NCBI GenBank assembly: GCA_951406725.2
Contig: OX597814.1
Location: 29,698,001-29,762,000, forward strand
Source: Octopus vulgaris
Lineage: Eukaryota
DNA length: 64,000 bases
Direction of reading: 5' to 3'
Shown here: piece after piece, positions 16,546 to 42,800 of the stretch
Layout of the letters: every line of letters begins with the position of its first letter
Position numbering within the stretch: the stretch's first letter is position 1
Notes under the pieces: model-generated
What the model was told of the DNA's origin: nothing
The model's input: the letters and a program-made list of their open reading frames with translations, nothing else
The model's database searches: none
Position numbers and translations under genes: made by a program

Positions 16546-17280
16546 TTAAGGGGTAAAGTTGACTGGCATTCGTTCTAGTCCTGTAGTATCAACAACTACT
16601 TTGAAGAAAGCTGTATTACTTTTCACATATGTATTTGGAGAGTTAAGCTTATCGAGTGACAGGAACAAAGGACAGCCACTTGCAATATTCATCTTGTTTT
16701 CTGGACGTTGAAATGAAGTACTTTTAGCATCAGGTCGGAAGCTGTCAATAACATGCTTTGTTCCTGATTGATCCAGCATCATTAATGAAACCTTTTGTTG
16801 AAAAGGCCACGCCAGAAGTGCATCATATGAGCCTCGCATGACAACAAAAAAAAGTGATATATATTTTCCTTTCCCCATGCCATCGCCATTTAGGTAGAGT
16901 CTAAGACACATCTTGTAACCGTACTTGCTAGTGTAGAATGGGGTTGAATATAAACTAGGACATGTTCCTTTTACTGCATCTTTACGCCGTTTTTCAAAGT
17001 CGTCTAATTTCCAAATAAATGTTCCATCATAACTAGGAATGTTTTCAAGTAGTGGTTCTTTCAAAGAGAGAAGTGGTTGAATTGTGCTAGTTAATTTTTT
17101 TAAATCAGACTGGAAAACTCCAACTAATTTGTCAATTTTAAGAAAATTCTTTTCAAATTTTTGACACCCCATTTCACTGTTTCCAGAATTATTCTTGCAT
17201 TTTTCTATATTCTTTTTTAAAATCAACATGTGTTCTTCAAGCTGTTCAAGAAGATGGTTTGATACTAATTTTGAGGAAAT
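16546..17280 (-). CDS. TRAF2: TRAF2-like terminal exon (end of last zinc finger, coiled coil, MATH domain, stop)
   Basis: Acceptor tttttcatttttacacag|ATT. ISSKLVSNHLLEQLEEH runs into the 227-aa ORF with YDGTFIWKL, GYKMCLRLYLNGDGMGKG, WPFQQKV and MNIASGCPLF. TAA at 16548-16546. Confidence 0.95.
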   Translation of the reverse strand: MSSKLVSNHLLEQLEEHMLILKKNIEKCKNNSGNSEMGCQKFEKNFLKIDKLVGVFQSDLKKLTSTIQPLLSLKEPLLENIPSYDGTFIWKLDDFEKRRKDAVKGTCPSLYSTPFYTSKYGYKMCLRLYLNGDGMGKGKYISLFFVVMRGSYDALLAWPFQQKVSLMMLDQSGTKHVIDSFRPDAKSTSFQRPENKMNIASGCPLFLSLDKLNSPNTYVKSNTAFFKVVVDTTGLERMPVNFTP

Positions 17281-17558
17281 CTGTGTAAAAATGAAAAAGA
17301 TACAAATAGTATAAAAGGTATGGTAATGTATTAATATAACTTCAAAACAGAAACAGAATTAAACATTAGAAATATTTTATGTGTTAATCAAATCACAAGA
17401 AGAATTGGCTGTGTGGTAAGTAGCTTGCTTACCAACCACATGGTTCCGGGTTCAGTCCCACTGCGTGGCACCTTGCGCAAGTGTCTTCTACTATAGCCTC
17501 GGGCCGACCAAAGCCTTGTGAGTGGATTTGGTAGATAGAAACTGAAAAAAGCCCGTTG

Positions 17559-22700: not shown

Positions 22701-25700
22701 AACAAAAGTTTTTAACCAAAAAAAAAAAAAAAAAAAAACAACCAAAAAACATTGTATGTTGCAACAATCTGTGAATTGTTCCATAATACTTTAGCATCTA
22801 TATCCCCATGTGTGGGATTTAATGGAAAGGACTAAGACCACTCAATACATGAAAGCAACAACACACAGCATAAAGAAAGCTTTGTTCTATAAATAAATAA
22901 ATTTTTTTAAAAATGCAACATAATGACCAACCTTCTACATTTTAAAATCATGCGTATAAACTCTATCTTAAAATATTTACAAATAAAGCAACTTTAAGGG
23001 GTTTATTTTGAACATCATCTTCCTATCATGTTCATTTTTTCCAATGTTGGTATGGGTTGGATAAGTCACGCAGTGTCTTGTCACTTGTTCACTATCTTTG
23101 TTATTTGGCATGCGCAGCTACAAAGAAAACCCAGCTTTCTTTGTTACTGTGCTAATATTTCTGCATGGTAAGGTGGCAAGCTGGCAGAAACGTTAGCATG
23201 CCGGGCGAAATGCTCAGCAGTATTTTGTCTGTCTTTACGTTCTGAGTTCAAATTCCACCGAGGTCAACTTTCATCCTTTCGGGATCAATAAATTAAGTAC
23301 TAGTTGCGTACTGGGGTCGATGTAATCGACTGGCCCCCTGCCCCCCAAATTTTGGGCCTTGTGCCTAGAGTAGAAAAGAATATTTCTGCATGGTTTTTAA
23401 GGGTGGATGTCTGTCATCCTACCAAGAATTTTATAGCAGATCAGATGCAGTTTTTGTAATCTTAACACTAGAGAGGTTGTCTCCAACAAGACTAAATGTC
23501 CCCACTGTCCTATGTCACCTTTATTCCTTCTTCTTTGGCATGGCTTTTACAGTGAGCTGGCCTTCATATCACCAAACACACCATAAAGTGTGGATTGGGT
23601 GCATTTTATTATGTCACTGGCATTAAAGAGACTGCCATTCATAGACAATGAAATATTTGGAGACTTTGCATACATTAGAATTACTATTAATAATTAAATT
23701 AATACATAAAGGCACAGGCATGGCTGTGTGGTAAGAATCTTGCTTCCCAACCACACGGTTCCAGGTTCAGTCCCATTGTGTGACACCTTGGGCAACTGTC
23801 TTTTACTTTAGCCTTGGGTCAACCAAAGCCTTGTGAATGGATTTGGTAGACAGAAACTGAAAGAAGCCCATCTGTGTTTGTTCCGTCACCACTTGACAAT
23901 TAGTGTTGGTGCGTTTACGTCCCAGTAACTCAGCGGTTCAGCAAAACAGACTAATAGAATTAGTACTAGGCTTAACCCTTTAGTATTTAAACTGGCCATA
24001 ATAGTTAATCTGTTTTATGTTCAAACTGACCAGATCCAGGCTCTCACACCTACCCTACAATGTTATTCTACATTAAGTAATTACACCATCAAGATCTTGA
24101 AGATATGAGATAATGCATGACTAATTCAAATCAATGGGAATCAATAAGCATTATGTTTGATAGAATAATCTGAACACTAAAGGGTTAAGAAATAAGTCCT
24201 GGGGTTGATTTGTTCAACTAAAACCCTTCAAGGTGGTGCTCCAGGATAGCCACAGTCAAATGACTAAAACAAGTAAAAGAATAAAAGAAAAATTAAATAG
24301 TGAAAATACGGTAATTTTTTTTTTAGGTGCATTGAGAATGTTTCCTATCAGTACAGAGAGCCACAAACATGAAAAATAAAATGGAAGGGATAGTGTAAAC
24401 ATTAGAATTAGCATAGTCAGTCATACAAGAAGACCGAAATATTTGGAAATTTTGTATATTTTAGAATTGTTAGCAATAATGAAAATATTGTTCTGATTAC
24501 AAATATTGTTCTAAGTACATCGTTCTAATTACAAATATTGGCTATAACACCGGAGTACACAAAATGGTCATCAGTGGGGTTTTAGGTTAGGTGGCCATGT
24601 GAAGACTGACTGTGCCCTGGGAGGAACATATAGAGGCTCATGAGAGGAAACTTGCCATATACCAGAGGCTGGTAGAGCAGTGCAGAAAATGGGGTTAGAA
24701 GGCATGTTGCAAGCCAACTGAGGTGGGCTGCAGGGGTTTTGTAGGTGCATTCATTCTGCAAAGCTCTGATTGGCACAGCAGAAAGGAGGGTCATAACTTC
24801 CATTGCTGAAGGTGTAGAGAAGGCCACTAATTGGCTTTAGATAAAGTGGGCAGATCAGTGCTTTGCTGCCACTGGGATGCCAGTGAGGACTTGATCAACT
24901 TCTGGTGGGTCAACTGGATGAAAGGCTCTGCCCTCTGACGTTAAAGATCTGAAACCCCCCCCGAGACTCAAGAAACACTATTGATGACATCCCAGAGATC
25001 CGTGAAATATATCTTGAAACAGATTTTGGTCAGAAATTCTATTTTGAATCTATGTAACTAATGTTTTCTGGTCAGCATTATCAATCCAATTACCAAATTT
25101 TCTTTCCCTCTGACTCAAAGACTTTAGTAATTTACTGTTTCAGAAATTATTACAACCGAAGAGAAAGTTAAGCAAGAGGGGAAAAAAAATCTCCTGCAAA
25201 GTGAGATTTTTCTTTTTTGCTTTTGTGATTGGTTGATATCTCATACCAGTTTAAGAAGTGTGAACCTGCAAATTTTGGTTTTAATTACTATTAGTCTTAT
25301 TTATCTGTGATAGAGAAGCCTAGTAAATACAGCGACGTGGTCTGACACGTAGGTCGAAAGAATCAGACCCGTAAGCTTACGGGTCGGCCCACACTGGATA
25401 GTCACGCTCTAGGTGACCGTCGCACCCCAAGGGGGTCAAGACTATATTGAGGGCTTGCAGGTGGATGTCTCCGGGATCGTTCGGCAGGATGCCCGAGACG
25501 TCAGCCTAAGAAGCCTAGAAAACAATTTATTTACCAAGTAAGTCTCCATTTGTGCTACCCTGTTCCCCACTTCTTTGATACCTTCTTATCTCTCTTGTCC
25601 TTTCTCCTATTCATAGTACCATGCTGCTCATGTAATAAGCAATATTCCTGTATTGAACCCATATCACTAACCTGATCGCCATATCTCTCTCTCTCTCATG

Positions 25701-28700
25701 ATGCTTGAATAATGAGAAATTAAATCTGATTTTTTTAATAACTGATACGCTATTACCTTTTTGTACAGGTAGCTATCATTCCTTCTTCACCAGGTGTCTT
25801 GTCATTGACACCTATCTCTCACTTGCTCTTTCTCTCATCAGCAAACATGCAGCTATCACAATTGAATGGATACAATATAGAACAGTAAGGTATCCATTAA
25901 CCTTTCAGGGAACAAGGCAACCTCGTTGGTGTTGCTCTCACAAGAAATTACACTCAGTACGCATTATAAAGCTGTAGGCAAATAAACAATGCAGGAATTA
26001 GAGTATCTTTTAGTCCTACTGAGTACATGATAACCTCTCTAGTGCTGGTACCACATAGTTTGTAGAAGACTAGAACCATAATGATCTGTTCAACCTATGC
26101 GAGCATGGAAAGCAGACATATGATGATGCAGCTAAGCTAAATTTTCATTTCTTATCACAAGGTGTTTTTCATTCTAAGATTTGGCAAGCTAAAAGTACCA
26201 AAAAAAAAAAAAAAAAAAAAAAGCAATCAATGATGACATTTCTGTAGGATTCAAATCTAAACCTAAAATTCACTGAACCAAGAACCTGATACTTGTTTAA
26301 TCCTTCATAATAATAATAGTGGTAAGTATGAGAAAATTATATTAGAAAATCATAAAAATTATGAAGCTCATCAAAATATAGGGCAAACAAAATACGGTAA
26401 GTTTGAATAGAAAGCTGTCTTATCAAGTCAATTTGAATATTAACCTTTTGATACCAGCAAACTTGAGACCAATCTGAGTCCATGACACAAACTTCTTGTT
26501 TTTAAGTGATCTACATGAAAATCTTCTATCAAAATTTCAAACACCAGATTAATAACATCAAAGTTATTTTACTAAATTCATTATTTTCAAAATTAATTGA
26601 AACAAAGGCAGTTATTTCATTAGAAATGTGGTAATGAATTGGTTAAAGAACTAATCCTTTTCTCACTACATTTCTGCTGAAATACACTACCTTTATTTTA
26701 ATATGAGCAAAACGCTCATATTCCTTCCTTCCTTCATGCCAAGTTTGAAGAAAATATCTCTTTTGCATCTTACTTTTTTGGTCTCTTAAATATACTGATT
26801 TTTTTTGTGGCATTATTTCAAGCCAGCTGGCTTTTTTGTGCAAACTGCACGTGCATTTTTCTCGCGGACGCATAGTATCAATTGCAACAGCTGATGTACT
26901 TGCACGTACAAATGCACGTTCCCATGGCTTTATCGATCACATTCTCATATGGAATCGAGTTTTGTAATATTTTCAAGACTTATACACGCCATGATACCGT
27001 CGGTATCTACATATCAAATTTGAACGCAATCGGATGGAGGATGCCTGAGATCCTAGAAGACACACACACAGACAGACAGAACGGATTTTATATTTTAATA
27101 TATTTTGAAAATGACTTTATCAGTCTTTAGCTGGTATTTGCAATGTAAATAAATTTACATGAAATTTAGAAGGTTTTCAATAAGATTTTTTAAAACAAAA
27201 AATTGGTATTAGAGAAGCAGGGGGTGGTTTCAGAAGGATTTGTACCAAAAGGGTTAATTGGTGATTTTAGGAACAAGAGTTTTAAGGAACAATACCTATC
27301 CAAATACCATCTGAGGTTTTAATGTAAAATGAAATTGTACTTATCTTCTAGCTAGGTGATGTTGCACATCATTCAGAGATATCTCTCAGTTACAGCTTAT
27401 CCATAAAAAGAAAATATTTAATTTTTTTTTAATTGGATCAGGAGAGAGAACTCCTCTCTGACAGGTCCCAAGGTAACTGATAAGAGAATGGCCTCTAGAT
27501 AACAGGATTAGAGGCAAGTATGGAAATAAGCTCTCCTGGATTTAACAGTTTCAGCAAGGGATAGCACCTGACAACCACTCAGTCTGGGATTACAGGTGAA
27601 GCCATGGGAAGCAATATGATAGATGTGTAATTTTATGTGAAAGAGTAATCCACTGGCCAATAGCACTACTCATACAATACAGTAAATGGCCAGGATCACC
27701 AAGTTTGCAAAGCGTATCATTGCTAATGTGTTTAAACCTAGCAAATCATCATCATTTAGCGTCTGCTTTCCATGCTAGCATGGGTTGGACGGTTCAACTG
27801 GGGTCTGTGAAGCCAGAAGGCTGCATCAGGCCCAGTCTGATCTGGCAGTGTTTCTACGGCTGGATGCCCTTCCTAACGCCAACCACTCCGTGAGTGTAGT
27901 GGGTGCTTTTTACGTGCCACCCACACAGGAGCCAGACGGAGCTGGCAAACGGCCATGGACGGATGGTGCTTTTTACGTGCCACCGGCATGGGGCCCAGGC
28001 GAGGCTGGCAACGGCCACGAACGGATGGTGCTTTTACGTGGCAATGAAAGATTAATCCAAGAAAGCTCAACCAGATGATCCTTTTTTTAAAAAAAAAATA
28101 CAGGAGTGGTCACTTTAGGTGTTGAACTTTTAATTATGTAGTCAAGAGTTTAAAACTTGCTTATAGCATTATGCCATCAACCCAGATATAATAATTCCAG
28201 TTGTCATTATGTTACTTAGCCTGTCACATGATTAGAAGAAAAGAGAGAAAGAAAAAGAGGGAGAGAGAAGCATCCATGACATGGTAGGGGGAACATAATA
28301 TATATTACGAGGTTAAAAAAAGTTAGTTGACGGTTGTGGTATAGAGGAGAGTTAGGAATATAATTTTAGCAGAGGGGTGATGTTCAGATGGTGAGATTAA
28401 AGAAAGGCAGAGAAAGAGAGATGACGATGGTGATGGAGGTGGTGAGTGCATAGTGAAAGGTATTTTTTTTTTTTGATTAGACTAAATTTTTTTTTTATCA
28501 CCTATTACTTAATGCATGCACATCCCAAAGTTGCCATTCACTTTAGAAAGAAACCAGTTTTTGTTTGCCTGTCATTTGCAATGACTATCAACAAATCACA
28601 AGGGCAGTTATTTGATAAAGTGGGGTTGTTCTTGCTTGAACCTGTATTCAGCCATGGACAGCTATATGTTGCATTCTCAAGGACTTGCAAATTATCTGAT

Positions 28701-36825: not shown

Positions 36826-39800
36826 TAGATAGATAAAAATGATAAGACAACAAAAGATAGAAAGAGGCCTCGATATTATGTAAATAGAGGAATTTATCTG
36901 TAAATGTAATATGTGACAATTATTCGGTAGCCATACACATACACAAAATATGTACACACATACACCCACATATACACACTAAATATATACATGATGACAT
37001 TGCTGCAAATCAAGAGCAGGCCATATAGCCCACATACAAGCTGGCCAGATGATTACTGCACAAGAATAGTCAATGTCGACTTATGACTGACAGCCAAAGA
37101 AGAGATACACACACACTAATTCTTTTATTTAAAAATTTTAAGAATAACAATGGAACATTTCTTGATAAGGAGAGTTGTTTACTATGATTTAAGTTAAATT
37201 ATGAATTTAGTTTTGAATAAGCTGTTAGGCAAAACAAAGTCCCAGTCAAAACCAGATTTATAATGCACACTTATATAACTCTAGTCCAATAGACCTTAAC
37301 AGCCTTATAATAATTTCTTTATTATAATTAGACACAAGTTCAATTTTGATAAAATGGGAATCTAATGAATGGAGGTAATAGGTTTTTTAGTGCTGTGGCA
37401 CTTAAGAAAATCTAATTCTTGAAATTTGCTTTCACAAACTCAGCTGTCATTACTTCCTTAACCCTTTCGTTACTGAATTTATTTTGAGATGCTCAGTGTT
37501 TCTTCCAATTATGTTAAATATAACAAAGAATTAAGTAAAATAACATCATTATCATTAAGCTAGAGTTAGGGACATAAATTGTGACTAAGGTTTGGTGGAA
37601 GGTTTTAATTCAGAACTTTTGAAAACCAGACATTTGTACTAAAGAGCCAGAGCCGGTTTCAGCCGGGTTGGTAACGAAAGGGTTAATAACATTAAACAGA
37701 AGGGGATTGTAGAAACAAAACCATGGTTGAAACATATCCAAAGAAACAATGCTATAGGTGAAAACTAAATATTTAATCCTTTTGATACCAATCTGTTTGA
37801 GACTGTTCTTGGTTCTGTGTTAAATACTTCCGGTTTTATAATGATATAAATTAAAACCTTCCATGCAAATTTCATTTTGATTTATGTTGTAAATACCAGC
37901 TAAATTCTTCATGATTTTCAAAATTAATTGAAATATGCAGTGTATTTCAGAAATATGGTAATAGAAGGGTTAACAAATCAATGACTAAAAAAACGAATGC
38001 AGAGGATTGTCTGGAATTAATGGCCTGACAGTTCATGTAATAAGAAATATAGCACGACCTACAAACATTAGGGCTCACCGGGGCAATGACAAGTGACTGA
38101 GACCTTTGGAGATATGCTGTGCTTGAGAAGATCCGGCAAGCCAAGTGAGACCATAACTGTAGCCTATGCTAGTGCTGTATAACCAGCCCATTTAAGAGTA
38201 TCCTTCAATCATTGGACAATAAACTACACTTGCGAAGACCTGTTGAGGCAACTGAAATCGTTGTTGTGGCCAATGACAGTACTGCCTGATTGGCACCTGC
38301 ACCAGTGGAACGTGAAAAGCACCATTCGAGTGTGATCATTGCCAGCGTTGCCTGACTGGTCCCTGTGCCGGTGGCACATAAAAAACACCATTCGAGCGTG
38401 GTCATTGCCAGACAGGTTCTTGTGCAGGTGGCATGTCAGAAGTACCATTTGAGCATGGCCGATACCAGTACCGCCTGACTGGCCCTCATGCTTATGGCAT
38501 GTAAAAGCACCCACTACATTCTCAAAGTGGTTGGCATTAGAAGGGGCATCCAGCTGTAGAAACTTTGCCAGATCAGATTGGAGCCTGGTGCAGCCTTCTA
38601 GCAAGCCAGCCCTGGAAATGTTCAACCCATGACAGCATGGAAAGTGGACATTAAATGATGATGATGATGAAGTATATGGAGCTATGGTAAACTACATCAT
38701 TTCTGGAAAAGACATCCCCTAACACAACAAACTACAAACACAATTGTAGTGGCATGTTTACATGGCAAGAAAAAACAAATAAATTAATTAAAAAATTGCA
38801 AAAAAATGTTAACAACAATCCTAGTATAGGAAGGTTGGGAGTCATTAAGTCTATTATAATAATGTAACAGCCAAATTCAGGATTGACATATATCATAAGT
38901 AATTGAACACTTTCTAAACTGAATATCAAGTAGTCATAAAATCATCGTTACTGTTAATACACCTGCTTTTTCTACGCTAGAGTGGATTGGATGCAAATTC
39001 TTATATCAGTTTTCTACAGCTGGAAGTCCTTCCTGATGCTAACTCTCGTTTTTAAGCAAGATACTTTATTCCACACATCAAACCACTGAGCTCTTTTGTT
39101 TATGTGGGATATATAGCTCAAACAATGTCAATGTGAAGATATTCAGAAAAAAGAAACACTCCTCCCCCTTATGGGTTTCCATACTTTATGTGAATGCACT
39201 TTTTGCCCCAAAACGTCTTTAAAAAAAACCCCTGGGTCCTACGTGAACTTGGGCAACTAAGCTTAAATGCATTAATTTTTTTTTTCCTCCTGAATGTGTT
39301 GCTGAAATTGGAGTGCATCTAATGTACACAAGACAAAACTGCTTGCATCCAAGTACATGGGGAGGAGTAGTGGAAAAGGAGAGAATAATGGTTTCAAATT
39401 TTGGCACAAGGCCAGCAATTGTAAGGGAGGAGCTAAGTCAATTACATTGATGCTAGTGTTCAACTGGTATTTATTATATTAACCCTGAAAGGATGAAAGA
39501 GAAAGTCAACCTTGGCAAACTTTGAACTCAGAATGTAAAGACAGACAAAATGATTGTGTTTATGAGTCTGCCAGCTTGCCACCTTAAAGGAGAAGACAAC
39601 AATAATAATAATTCCTGAAATTAGCACAAGACGAGAAGAGGTGAGTGAATTAACCTGTGAATTAAACAATGAATTATATGCAAGGAGTTGAAATTTAATA
39701 ATGAACTTACTTTATAATCCTTGAATTTGCCTTTCCATGAACACCCTGGATATAAACACTGAGCAGGGTGTTTGTCAAGTTCTTTCCGAAGGTAATAATC

Positions 39801-42800
39801 AGGAGTATATGGTTGCTGCAAGTAAAATGGCATAACTCTTTAGAAGAAGCCATGTCTAACTGATAAATACTTTATCAATAAATTGAAGAACTTTGGGAAT
39901 ATATTTATAAAAAAACAATAAAAAGAAAAGCTGATTTGCATATGCTATAATTTATAACATCACAAATATACTAAACTAGCAGTATCGCCCGGCGTTGCTC
40001 AGGTTTGTAAGGGAAATAACTATAAAGCATTTTTAGAGAGTTATAGCCAAAAAATAGCAAAAAAATGGAAAAAAAATGATGGTAAATTTTTTTTTTGAGA
40101 GTTAAAAAAGGTGGAGTTGCTTCCCCTAGACGGTCTGTGGTTTGGGTTTCTGATTCTCGACCCCATGTCGAATTTATCGATTTTTTTCAGAACTGGGGGA
40201 ACTTTTCAAAATTTTCGCTGCGTTAGTTTTGAATTATGACATTGGGCTATGTGTGTGTCAAGTTTCATCAGAATCGGTTGAAAGCCGTGGTCAGAGTGAG
40301 GGTACGAGAAAACAGACACACAGAAAACGCACAGACAAACTGCCGTTTATATAGAGAGAGATAATTTATTTTATTAATAAAACGGTGCAAAATAAGGTTA
40401 TGGTATTGAGTTATTATGGTAGTAATGTTAACTCAATATTCTGAAAAACATGTTTTAGTAAAAGTACTAAAATCCAGTGTGTATTATAAAAGCTAAGGTA
40501 CTGGATTGCCAATTCTTGGTTTGAGCTGAAATTCATGTCATTTTGTTTCAAATTTGGACTAAAATATTTTTTCTATATCCTTCCTTTAGCTGTTAAGATT
40601 AGGTATCAGAACTTCAGAGAAGCTTTCTTGTGTTAGACTAGCATTTAAACAAGGGAGTTATTTGTCTCTTATTGGATTCTTACTCAGCCAAAGACCAACT
40701 TTTGTACAGAGGGGATACAAATGTATCAACCACTGCATATGACTGGCCTTTACTGAAGAGCAAAGTCAACTGTTTAGGTTTAAACTTGGGACATGGAAAA
40801 CAAAATAATGTAATGTATTTAATCAAGAATTGTCTTGATCAGTTTCACTGTCCTGATAACTAATATCAAAACGGATACAAAAATTATAAAGACATACCTC
40901 GTTTTTGGAAATCAGCATACTGATAGTGGGATCAATGGAATCAGATTCATTTGACACATCTTCCAAACATTTTTCACAGATGCTATCCCTGTAAGACAGA
41001 AAATAAAATAAATTCCACAAGATGTGTCTTCAGACAAATGAACCCATGTCAAGAGAGTTGTTCTTTATGAGATGTCATTAAAAGGTTTTATGAACATACA
41101 ATTCTTCAAATTCCAATACTAAAGTCTGGTAGACAAGTGCTGAATAATAATCTGCCAAACTGACCCTAATACCCAATTTTGAATACCAAATATGTATTTT
41201 GTTTTGCTCTTCTAGGAATTGATTCTCAACATTCTGGTATAGATTATGGCATTGTTTTTAGAAAATAATACAATACTTAATACCATTATTTCAGCCAATA
41301 ATATTTAGTGGCCGCCCAGATAAATTGTTGGGTAGCTTCAAAAACCTACTCCTGCTTGATTTTACTGACAAAATGCATGAAGAACTTTCTGGAACATTTT
41401 ATTTTTCATGTAACTAAGATTCAGTTTGAACCTCTCACTAGAATTTGCCTTAATAATGACTGGAGTATCTGTCCTCTCAGTCAGGCTGTAAAAAATGATT
41501 CTCACACAATTTGCATTCTATTTCCTCAAGCTTACACACTATGTGAGGCAACAACAAATAACAAACATGCAGTTCTAGTATTTCTATCTTGTACATATGA
41601 ACAAAAAACAAAAAAACAAACAAACTTATATTAAATTTTAAACTGAGAATCAAGCATTTCTTGGATTTTAACAGCTTTCTGATAGTTACGAATAAATTTG
41701 CTTATTTGAGAGCCTATCATTATCTTTCTCATTCATCCTTCAAAAACACAGGATTCTCTTCTATGTTACATTTGGTGACAACTAGACATTTTCATTCATA
41801 TTTACTTAGTTACATTTACCAACTTAACATTTTATTCTCAGTCAAATTTGCAATGCTAATTTCTTAGAGGAACGCGCAAAAGTTAGACAATCACACTTCA
41901 TAATCCATAAGTGGAAATAAATGAAAGGAACTTTAACCCTTTAGCATTTAGATTACTCTGTCAAATGTAAAGCCTGTTTAATCACAGTGTTTTAAATTAA
42001 TTGTACAGCATCTTGTAACTCTGGGATATTGATGATGTCTATGTTTATTTTTAGAATGACTTTGTAGGGTAGGTGTGAGAGGTCAGAGCTGGCTGGTTTG
42101 AGCATAAAACAGGAAGACAATTTTGGCCTGATATGGCCGGTTTAAACACTAAAGGGTTAAGCAAACAAAAATTATTCTGGGGACACACCTTATGAGAGAT
42201 TACTGGAGTGCTAGTGCAATAGATAAAAATAATTGCATTAATTACAAAGATAATATGTAACTAGAAGGCAACTCAATAGCATAGTATTCATTTCAAAACT
42301 GAAACAGACCGTTGAACACACCTAGTTTATTTTGAACACGAGTCAGTAAAGATATAAACACATCAACAGCAAATCATACTGCTTTACGTAATTTGTATAA
42401 ACTGTAGAGCATTATCAGTGAACAGTGGTAATGTTCTGTACTGATTGCATAAGATCTAAATGAGCAAATATAATTCCTCTTGAGTCAAATCTATATTTAG
42501 CCCTTTAACATTCAGATTACCTTGTCAAATGTATTGAATTAAACATGCATCAATCTCACAGCTTTGACGTTTTTATGATGTGATTGTTTATTTTTCGAAT
42601 GGCATTGTAGGGTAGATACAAGCCAGATTTAACCAGTTTGTGCATAAAACAATATTTCAGCCAGATATGGCTGGTTTAAGTGCTAATGAGTTAAATATAT
42701 TACTTATTTCTTTACTACCCACAAGGGGCTAAACATAGAGGGGACAAACAAGGACAGACATAGGTATTAAGCCATTTACATCAACCCCAGTGCGTAACTG

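Follow-up and report, generated by a model that had tools for sequence, protein, structure and literature searches.

A polymorphic fragment of the rDNA intergenic spacer, flanked by a 10-bp target-site duplication, in an intron of an octopus TRAF-like gene

Introduction

What is the 185-nt, GC-rich segment that lies between two exact copies of a 10-bp sequence in an intron of an Octopus vulgaris gene, and by what route did it arrive there? A preliminary description of the 64,000-nt stretch of contig OX597814.1 analyzed here (referred to as the window, whose numbering is used throughout) portrayed the segment as an orphan, highly structured insert. It proposed that the insert is a recent retrocopy of an unknown structured RNA, made by target-primed reverse transcription, with a ribozyme-like or retrozyme-like mobile RNA, a viral untranslated region, or the end of an undescribed non-LTR element as possible sources. 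Here, we identify the donor of the insert, weigh the routes by which it could have been inserted, and ask whether its sequence bears the marks of a conserved RNA fold.

Results

The insert is flanked by a true target-site duplication and is polymorphic

The host gene is TRAF-like according to its Pfam matches (MATH and TRAF2 zinc finger), as the preliminary description had it. It is encoded on the minus strand and the insert on the plus strand; the insert is therefore antisense to it, in intronic DNA between the upstream zinc-finger exon listed in Table 1 and zinc-finger-like exons near 22.6 kb. The 10-mer AGAAGCCTAG occurs twice in the whole window, at the two edges of the insert, and the window holds no second copy of the insert, as was first reported. 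Our recalculation gives 56.8% GC and 15 CpG in 185 nt, in flanks with 34 to 38% GC and 6 to 7 CpG per kb, which agrees with the 57% GC, 15 CpG, and AT-rich, CpG-poor surroundings described earlier. About 550 nt upstream of the insert, a decayed frame on the plus strand (24603-24760) reads LTVPWEE...EVGCRGF, which would correspond to the C-terminal endonuclease region of HERO/R2-type non-LTR retrotransposons.

Table 1. Positions of the insert, its internal features, and the neighboring exons of the host gene
Feature	Position	Strand	Remarks
TRAF-like last coding exon, MATH domain	16546..17358	-	
Left copy of the 10-bp target-site duplication, AGAAGCCTAG	25314..25323	+	Last G is also the donor base preceding the insert (1-nt microhomology; donor context CGGG/TAAA, slash at the junction)
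Fragment of the head of the rDNA intergenic-spacer repeat	25324..25508	+	rRNA sense; 7-nt deletion and 4 nearly private substitutions
Part of the insert that, in every full rDNA unit, also immediately precedes the 5' ETS	25324..25453	+	Predicted RNA polymerase I promoter copy, from its position
20-bp palindrome	25366..25385	.	Found in one spacer variant and disrupted in that of the array
TATATTGAGGG, spacer counterpart of TAATATGTAGGG	25443..25453	+	Candidate Pol I start site
Right copy of the target-site duplication	25509..25518	+	Leading AGA continues the donor (3-nt microhomology)
Upstream TRAF-like zinc-finger exon	39621..39839	-	

We compared the locus with 4 of the 24 listed sequencing runs (X2, X3, X8, and X18), all of DNA type. 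One contig of run X3 links position 25313 to position 25509, skipping 195 positions, with 10 letters that fit either side; this is an empty site with a single copy of AGAAGCCTAG, as envisaged in the preliminary description. The insertion also has the read support on which that description had made its case depend: contigs of run X2 cross each junction separately, with 0 differences from the window, and X2 yields no empty allele. In run X8, contigs end at 25327 and begin at 25509 with none bridging the two, and run X18 covers the left flank only. The flanks in X3 differ from the window at 21 of ~900 positions, which places the empty allele on a distinct haplotype or in a close relative, so that the event need not be very recent. 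Run X1 contains 0.97 of the words searched for, and the sequencing-run search has no matching RNA run on record. Summed contig depth over the insert far exceeds that over the flanks, a depth that does not equate to copy number. The duplication is a true target-site duplication, and the insertion is real and polymorphic, being present in one sequenced animal and absent in another.

The donor is a repeat of the host's own rDNA intergenic spacer

Searching the source genome with the insert returned 264 candidates, 40 of which were scored, and among the 42 matches listed, the insert included, the others are 82 to 93% identical to the 185 nt; the insert is thus not the orphan it had been called. 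The matches sit in CpG-rich arrays in which a head of ~265 nt is followed by subrepeats of ~200 nt. At one locus (L038), Rfam matches show the repeat cluster lying between LSU rRNA, which precedes it, and SSU rRNA, which follows it, both on the same strand. A tandem array on contig C20 holds eight 18S anchors at spacings of 17.8 to 23.3 kb, mostly about 18.4 kb (period, about 18.3 kb), and its units run in the order 18S, 5.8S, 28S, 141-bp repeats, four heads with subrepeats, a cut last head, ~1.6 kb of ETS, and the next 18S. Four whole homologs of the insert and one partial homolog are found per rDNA unit in three of the four array stretches examined, and a spacer-head anchor matches four to five times per unit across the eight C20 units, with the same period as the rDNA array. 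In 30 kb of array, the only Rfam matches at gathering score are rRNA. It is nearly certain that the insert is a piece of the host's own rDNA intergenic-spacer repeat, in rRNA sense, from between 28S and the 5' ETS, rather than of an unknown ribozyme-like RNA, a viral untranslated region, or a non-LTR end. Its GC and CpG richness is inherited from this spacer, which in the array has 65% GC and 15 CpG per 100 nt. We had also considered an 844-nt tandem unit as a retrozyme or subtelomeric satellite, a reading rejected because rRNA genes flank it on both sides. Our search of the open-licence literature found no paper on a cephalopod rDNA spacer.

The best full-length match of the insert, among dispersed or degraded copies, is 94% over aligned columns, whereas the assembled tandem-array variant matches in 84 to 85% of columns (81% by BLAST). 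Given this greater similarity to dispersed copies than to the array, an older or minor variant of the spacer, or else a further dispersed copy, probably served as donor.

Several other arrangements of the spacer repeat were observed. Two head variants coexist, a palindrome-bearing one in dispersed blocks and in the first head of some units (L003, L011, L038, and L039) and a non-palindromic one in the tandem array (L107). The ~52 kb of spacer repeats at G000:C33:177171-228743 (L035-L037, L104, L105, and L101) carry 34 exact head anchors, all on the same strand, contain no 18S or 28S anchor, and are inverted relative to the adjoining rDNA unit; this block is either a spacer-derived satellite or an over-expanded spacer. 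Scrambled spacer-repeat blocks of 6 to 11 kb, with many inversions and no rRNA match in Rfam, lie near the ends of contigs C16 (L031-L032) and C22 (L033-L034).

The spacer head is a candidate Pol I promoter copy

The last head of the rDNA unit matches insert positions 1 to 130 and then diverges into unique ETS, at a spacer/ETS boundary that reads TAATATGTAGGG. This direct passage from the last head into unique ETS makes it likely that the heads are Pol I promoter duplicates, and the spacer repeat is, judging from this arrangement, likely a spacer copy of the Pol I promoter. The candidate start-site sequence resembles a putative start site described for mussel (PMC6730533). Of 19 ETS-anchored loci, four have starts between -10 and +6 relative to the candidate site, but this start sequence is present twice in the ETS. 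Within the 5' ETS (L107), the first 200 nt recur at ~+411 relative to the candidate start, with ~75% identity.

Dispersed spacer fragments have scattered ends and no tails

We examined 43 loci; 2 lacked an anchor, and another 14 were set aside because they were duplicates or formed rDNA blocks that were long, complex, or open-ended. The 27 short dispersed fragments that were kept measure 55 to 834 nt (median, 239), their ends scatter, and none of the 27 carries an A6 tail. An exact duplication of at least 7 bp flanks four of them, this insert included, and is lacking in the other 23. Such duplications are in excess (3 of 26 fragments without the query versus 11 of 702 mismatched flank pairs, P = 0.008). 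Those seen at the other loci measure 9 bp (L020), 8 bp exactly or ~11 bp with an indel (L042), and 7 bp (L072), and appear to be target-site duplications. In four cases, the flanks could be matched to further copies of a repeat, and each comparison reveals a loss of target DNA, which is clear at ~30 bp in L013 and ~23 bp in L095 (many subjects) and less clear in L028 and L084.

A start could be placed in 34 of the 35 loci anchored in the head, and these starts lie between -597 and +9 relative to the start of the insert. Six of the 34 fall between -3 and +1 (one is the query itself and one an internal duplication), and the 12 newly anchored loci all start farther than 10 nt from the insert start. 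An apparent cluster of 5' ends was accordingly given up, being absent in the 12 new loci and perhaps explained by AT-rich junction matches, and an apparent cluster of 3' ends near the insert end, seen among similarity matches, faded with pattern-anchored loci. Counted as raw matches rather than as events, anchors of the two spacer variants match 79 and 122 times (many in arrays), compared with 64 for 18S, 45 for 28S, and 31 for the ETS. Separately, L060, L061, and L068 (on C48, C28, and C42) carry an identical spacer insertion with an internal tandem duplication and a common left flank, which was either duplicated with its host region or reflects redundant scaffolds.

Dispersed 18S fragments often start at the mature 5' end

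We fetched 20 of the 64 18S anchor matches (L116-L135) and located both ends in 18. The starts of eight of the 18 cluster within 5 nt at the mature 5' end (a uniform model gives P of about 1e-6 or less), which makes reverse transcription of rRNA into chromosomes likely; tailless rRNA-templated insertion thus likely occurs in this genome. None of the eight pieces starting at the mature end has a duplication of at least 7 bp, so that a duplication is not a mark of the RNA route here. Another 18S fragment, L125, has a duplication of 21 bp.

Capture of spacer DNA in a staggered break is the favored route

Based on these observations, we think it rather probable that the TRAF-like intron received a piece of rDNA spacer by DNA copying or capture at a staggered break. 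In such an event, a staggered break would open in the intron; an rDNA fragment, a circle, or another dispersed copy would provide the DNA template; the ends would be joined via the 1-nt and 3-nt microhomologies; and fill-in of the stagger would generate the 10-bp duplication. The inserted copy would presumably be inert. The donor context TA/AGACG, which underlies the right junction, occurs in 12 of 74 donor copies and is the commonest among those starting TA/A. Capture of DNA is favored by the scattered ends of the spacer fragments, their lack of A6 tails, the predominance of fragments without a duplication of at least 7 bp, and the missing target DNA at some loci. This mix of deletions, microhomology, occasional duplication, and no tail matches capture in break repair as portrayed in PMC2671141 and PMC5110952, and microhomology plus duplication without poly-A is a minority pattern listed among the repair-mediated duplications of PMC2671141. 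In addition, spacer anchors are as numerous as rRNA anchors, which a purely RNA-based route from what would be far rarer spacer transcripts does not predict. Other findings pull against capture of DNA. Duplications are said to be absent from human class 2 templated insertions (PMC5110952), yet the insert has one; duplications of at least 7 bp are in excess; six head fragments start within a few nucleotides of the insert start; and insertion from an RNA template does occur in this genome, to judge from the 18S pieces. Moreover, the 10-bp duplication and the 3-nt microhomology at the sense 3' end fit tailless target-primed reverse transcription as well, for which a stagger of 8 to 30 nt and pairing over 2 to 18 nt are given in PMC5322556.

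We take seriously, though we lean against it, the alternative that a Pol I spacer transcript, arising by read-through or from a spacer promoter, was reverse transcribed at a nick by a LINE-type enzyme primed on the 3-nt AGA, leaving a tailless retrocopy and the 10-bp duplication. The length of the duplication, the AGA microhomology, and the lack of a tail would all suit tailless retropseudogenes as characterized in PMC5322556; spacer promoters have been described for insects, amphibians, rodents, and plants (PMC5765358); and the clustered 18S starts and the excess of duplications among spacer fragments point the same way. However, the spacer fragments share neither a 3' nor a 5' end, the insert spans the candidate start site instead of beginning there, and the 18S pieces that start at the mature end lack duplications of at least 7 bp. 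The bottom-strand nick, CTTCT/CT, is only partly like TTTT/A, the spacer transcript would be a putative one, and spacer pieces are not rarer than rRNA pieces. Of the original proposal of a retrocopy made by target-primed reverse transcription, then, the real insertion with its duplication stands and an RNA template retains some likelihood, but the unknown structured RNA gives way to an rDNA spacer donor with no conserved fold and no common ends.

A bolder extension of this alternative strikes us as unlikely. It holds that transcripts from Pol I spacer promoters undergo reverse transcription and tailless insertion into chromosomes in the manner of mature 18S rRNA; dispersed rDNA pieces would then be a fossil map of transcript ends, and the insert would be a retrocopy of an undescribed spacer RNA that carried a whole Pol I promoter copy into the TRAF intron.

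The insert gives no sign of a conserved RNA fold

The plus strand of the insert folds modestly better than shuffled sequence (z = -2.64, with 2 of 200 shuffles folding as well), and the minus strand has z = -1.16. Among the 36 other copies, 11 fold at z <= -2.6, mostly of the palindrome-bearing variant, compared with 0 of 45 tiles of array spacer. The description of the insert as highly structured holds to the extent of this modest score, but copies in the array fold like shuffles (z of 0.2 to 1.4), and none of the 32 consensus pairs shows a two-sided change across 37 aligned copies, which are 84 to 94% alike and so closely related that the covariation test has limited power.

All motifs named in the preliminary description are present where it placed them. 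Two of them, GCGACG (25332-25337) and ACGTG (25335-25339), share 3 nt; full formation of the 6-bp closing stem thus excludes a complete ACGTG/CACGT helix, and vice versa. The proposed helix and pseudoknot require T25343 and A25347, each found in only 1 of the 36 other copies; they are complete in at most 1 and 2 of the 37 copies, respectively, and 0 of their 24 pairs covary. The pseudoknot thus relies on bases nearly private to this copy, and covariation among copies, whose lack the preliminary description had named as grounds for refuting its reading, did not appear. An alternative structure, formed by the palindrome and the 3' hairpin, has 92.2% of cells paired versus 91.3% in shuffles (0 of 500) and six two-sided changes (16 of 500 shuffles). 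A single copy, whose 3' part is unrelated, accounts for four of the six two-sided cells, and slid controls yield four to eight two-sided pairs. Scanning positions 25100-25750 against Rfam gave no match inside the insert even at E <= 10; four weak matches at this threshold all lie in the AT-rich flank. Pistol-like and hairpin-ribozyme-like readings suggested by its motifs were discarded, having no Rfam support and requiring pairs nearly private to the insert. Within the limited power of these comparisons, nothing supports a selected or conserved RNA fold.

It is very improbable that the repeat encodes a structured, possibly self-cleaving ribozyme- or retrozyme-like RNA that spreads as a mobile unit. 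The z score of the insert, the copies that fold better than any array tile, the slight edge of the alternative structure over shuffles, and the occurrence of tandem copies would be in keeping with such an RNA. The tandem copies, however, lie within rDNA units and fold like shuffles there, the dispersed fragments have no common ends, the two-sided changes trace mostly to one aberrant copy and are equaled by slid controls, and neither Rfam nor the consensus and proposed helices lend support; position and the lack of covariation already largely refute this reading. An assembly or contamination artefact is less credible still: rDNA is high in copy number and can be misassembled, X2 could be the very sample that was assembled, and the insert is not covered from end to end by any single X2 contig, but the X2 junction contigs are free of differences, X3 has a precise empty site in which the 10-mer stands once, and the insert bears private changes.

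Discussion

On present evidence, the insert is a real, polymorphic dispersed fragment of rDNA spacer, which is a known kind of sequence, and not a ribozyme, a retrozyme, a viral untranslated region, or the end of an element. The single event matters little, adding one more dispersed rDNA fragment that is usable as a presence/absence marker, and a false lead for a new ribozyme is removed. The work also yielded two by-products of modest value: the layout of this animal's rDNA spacer, with its apparent promoter duplications, and the evidence for tailless rRNA-templated insertions.

Retrozymes and ribozyme-bearing retroelements are small and GC-rich and exist as tandem and dispersed copies, some with duplications. 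The insert resembles them in each of these respects and differs from them in that its copies are part of rDNA units, with no ribozyme match, covariation, or fixed monomer ends.

The insert also has a likeness to tailless retropseudogenes as defined in PMC5322556, which have a duplication of 8 to 30 nt, no tail, and a 3' end that pairs with the target over 2 to 18 nt; the 10-bp duplication and the AGA of the insert fall within these bounds. Those retropseudogenes are presented there as L1 products of therian mammals with recurrent truncation points in defined RNAs, whereas the source RNA here would be putative and the ends of the spacer pieces scatter in sets of 27 and 34 fragments, which are small samples for recurrence.

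The insert is also like templated sequence insertion polymorphisms and repair-mediated duplications, as reported in PMC5110952 and PMC2671141, in being short and polymorphic, with a distant template, junction microhomology, and no poly-A. Neither class of the former, as set out in PMC5110952, fits cleanly. The poly-A or fixed 3' tail of class 1, of processed retrocopies, and of SINEs is present in 0 of the 27 fragments, and the insert has no clear TTTT/A site; class 2 has microhomology or a deletion and no target duplication, and most of the sister fragments likewise lack a duplication, whereas the insert, with its 10 bp, does not.

The donor repeat, in turn, is arranged like the rDNA spacer promoters of Xenopus, Drosophila, rodents, and plants covered in PMC5765358, in that repeated blocks duplicate the sequence just upstream of the ETS and are separated by short subrepeats (~190 to 200 bp). 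Unlike in those systems, the promoter role here is predicted from position, and similarity of sequence to them is not expected.

Finally, the insert and its relatives resemble the dispersed rDNA pieces, or orphons, of the human genome as reported in PMC5381670, where short and long pieces of 45S and intergenic spacer lie scattered outside the arrays. Compared with that genome-wide account, the present locus offers a single event with both junctions and an empty allele resolved, together with the identity and orientation of its donor and the lack of a conserved fold.
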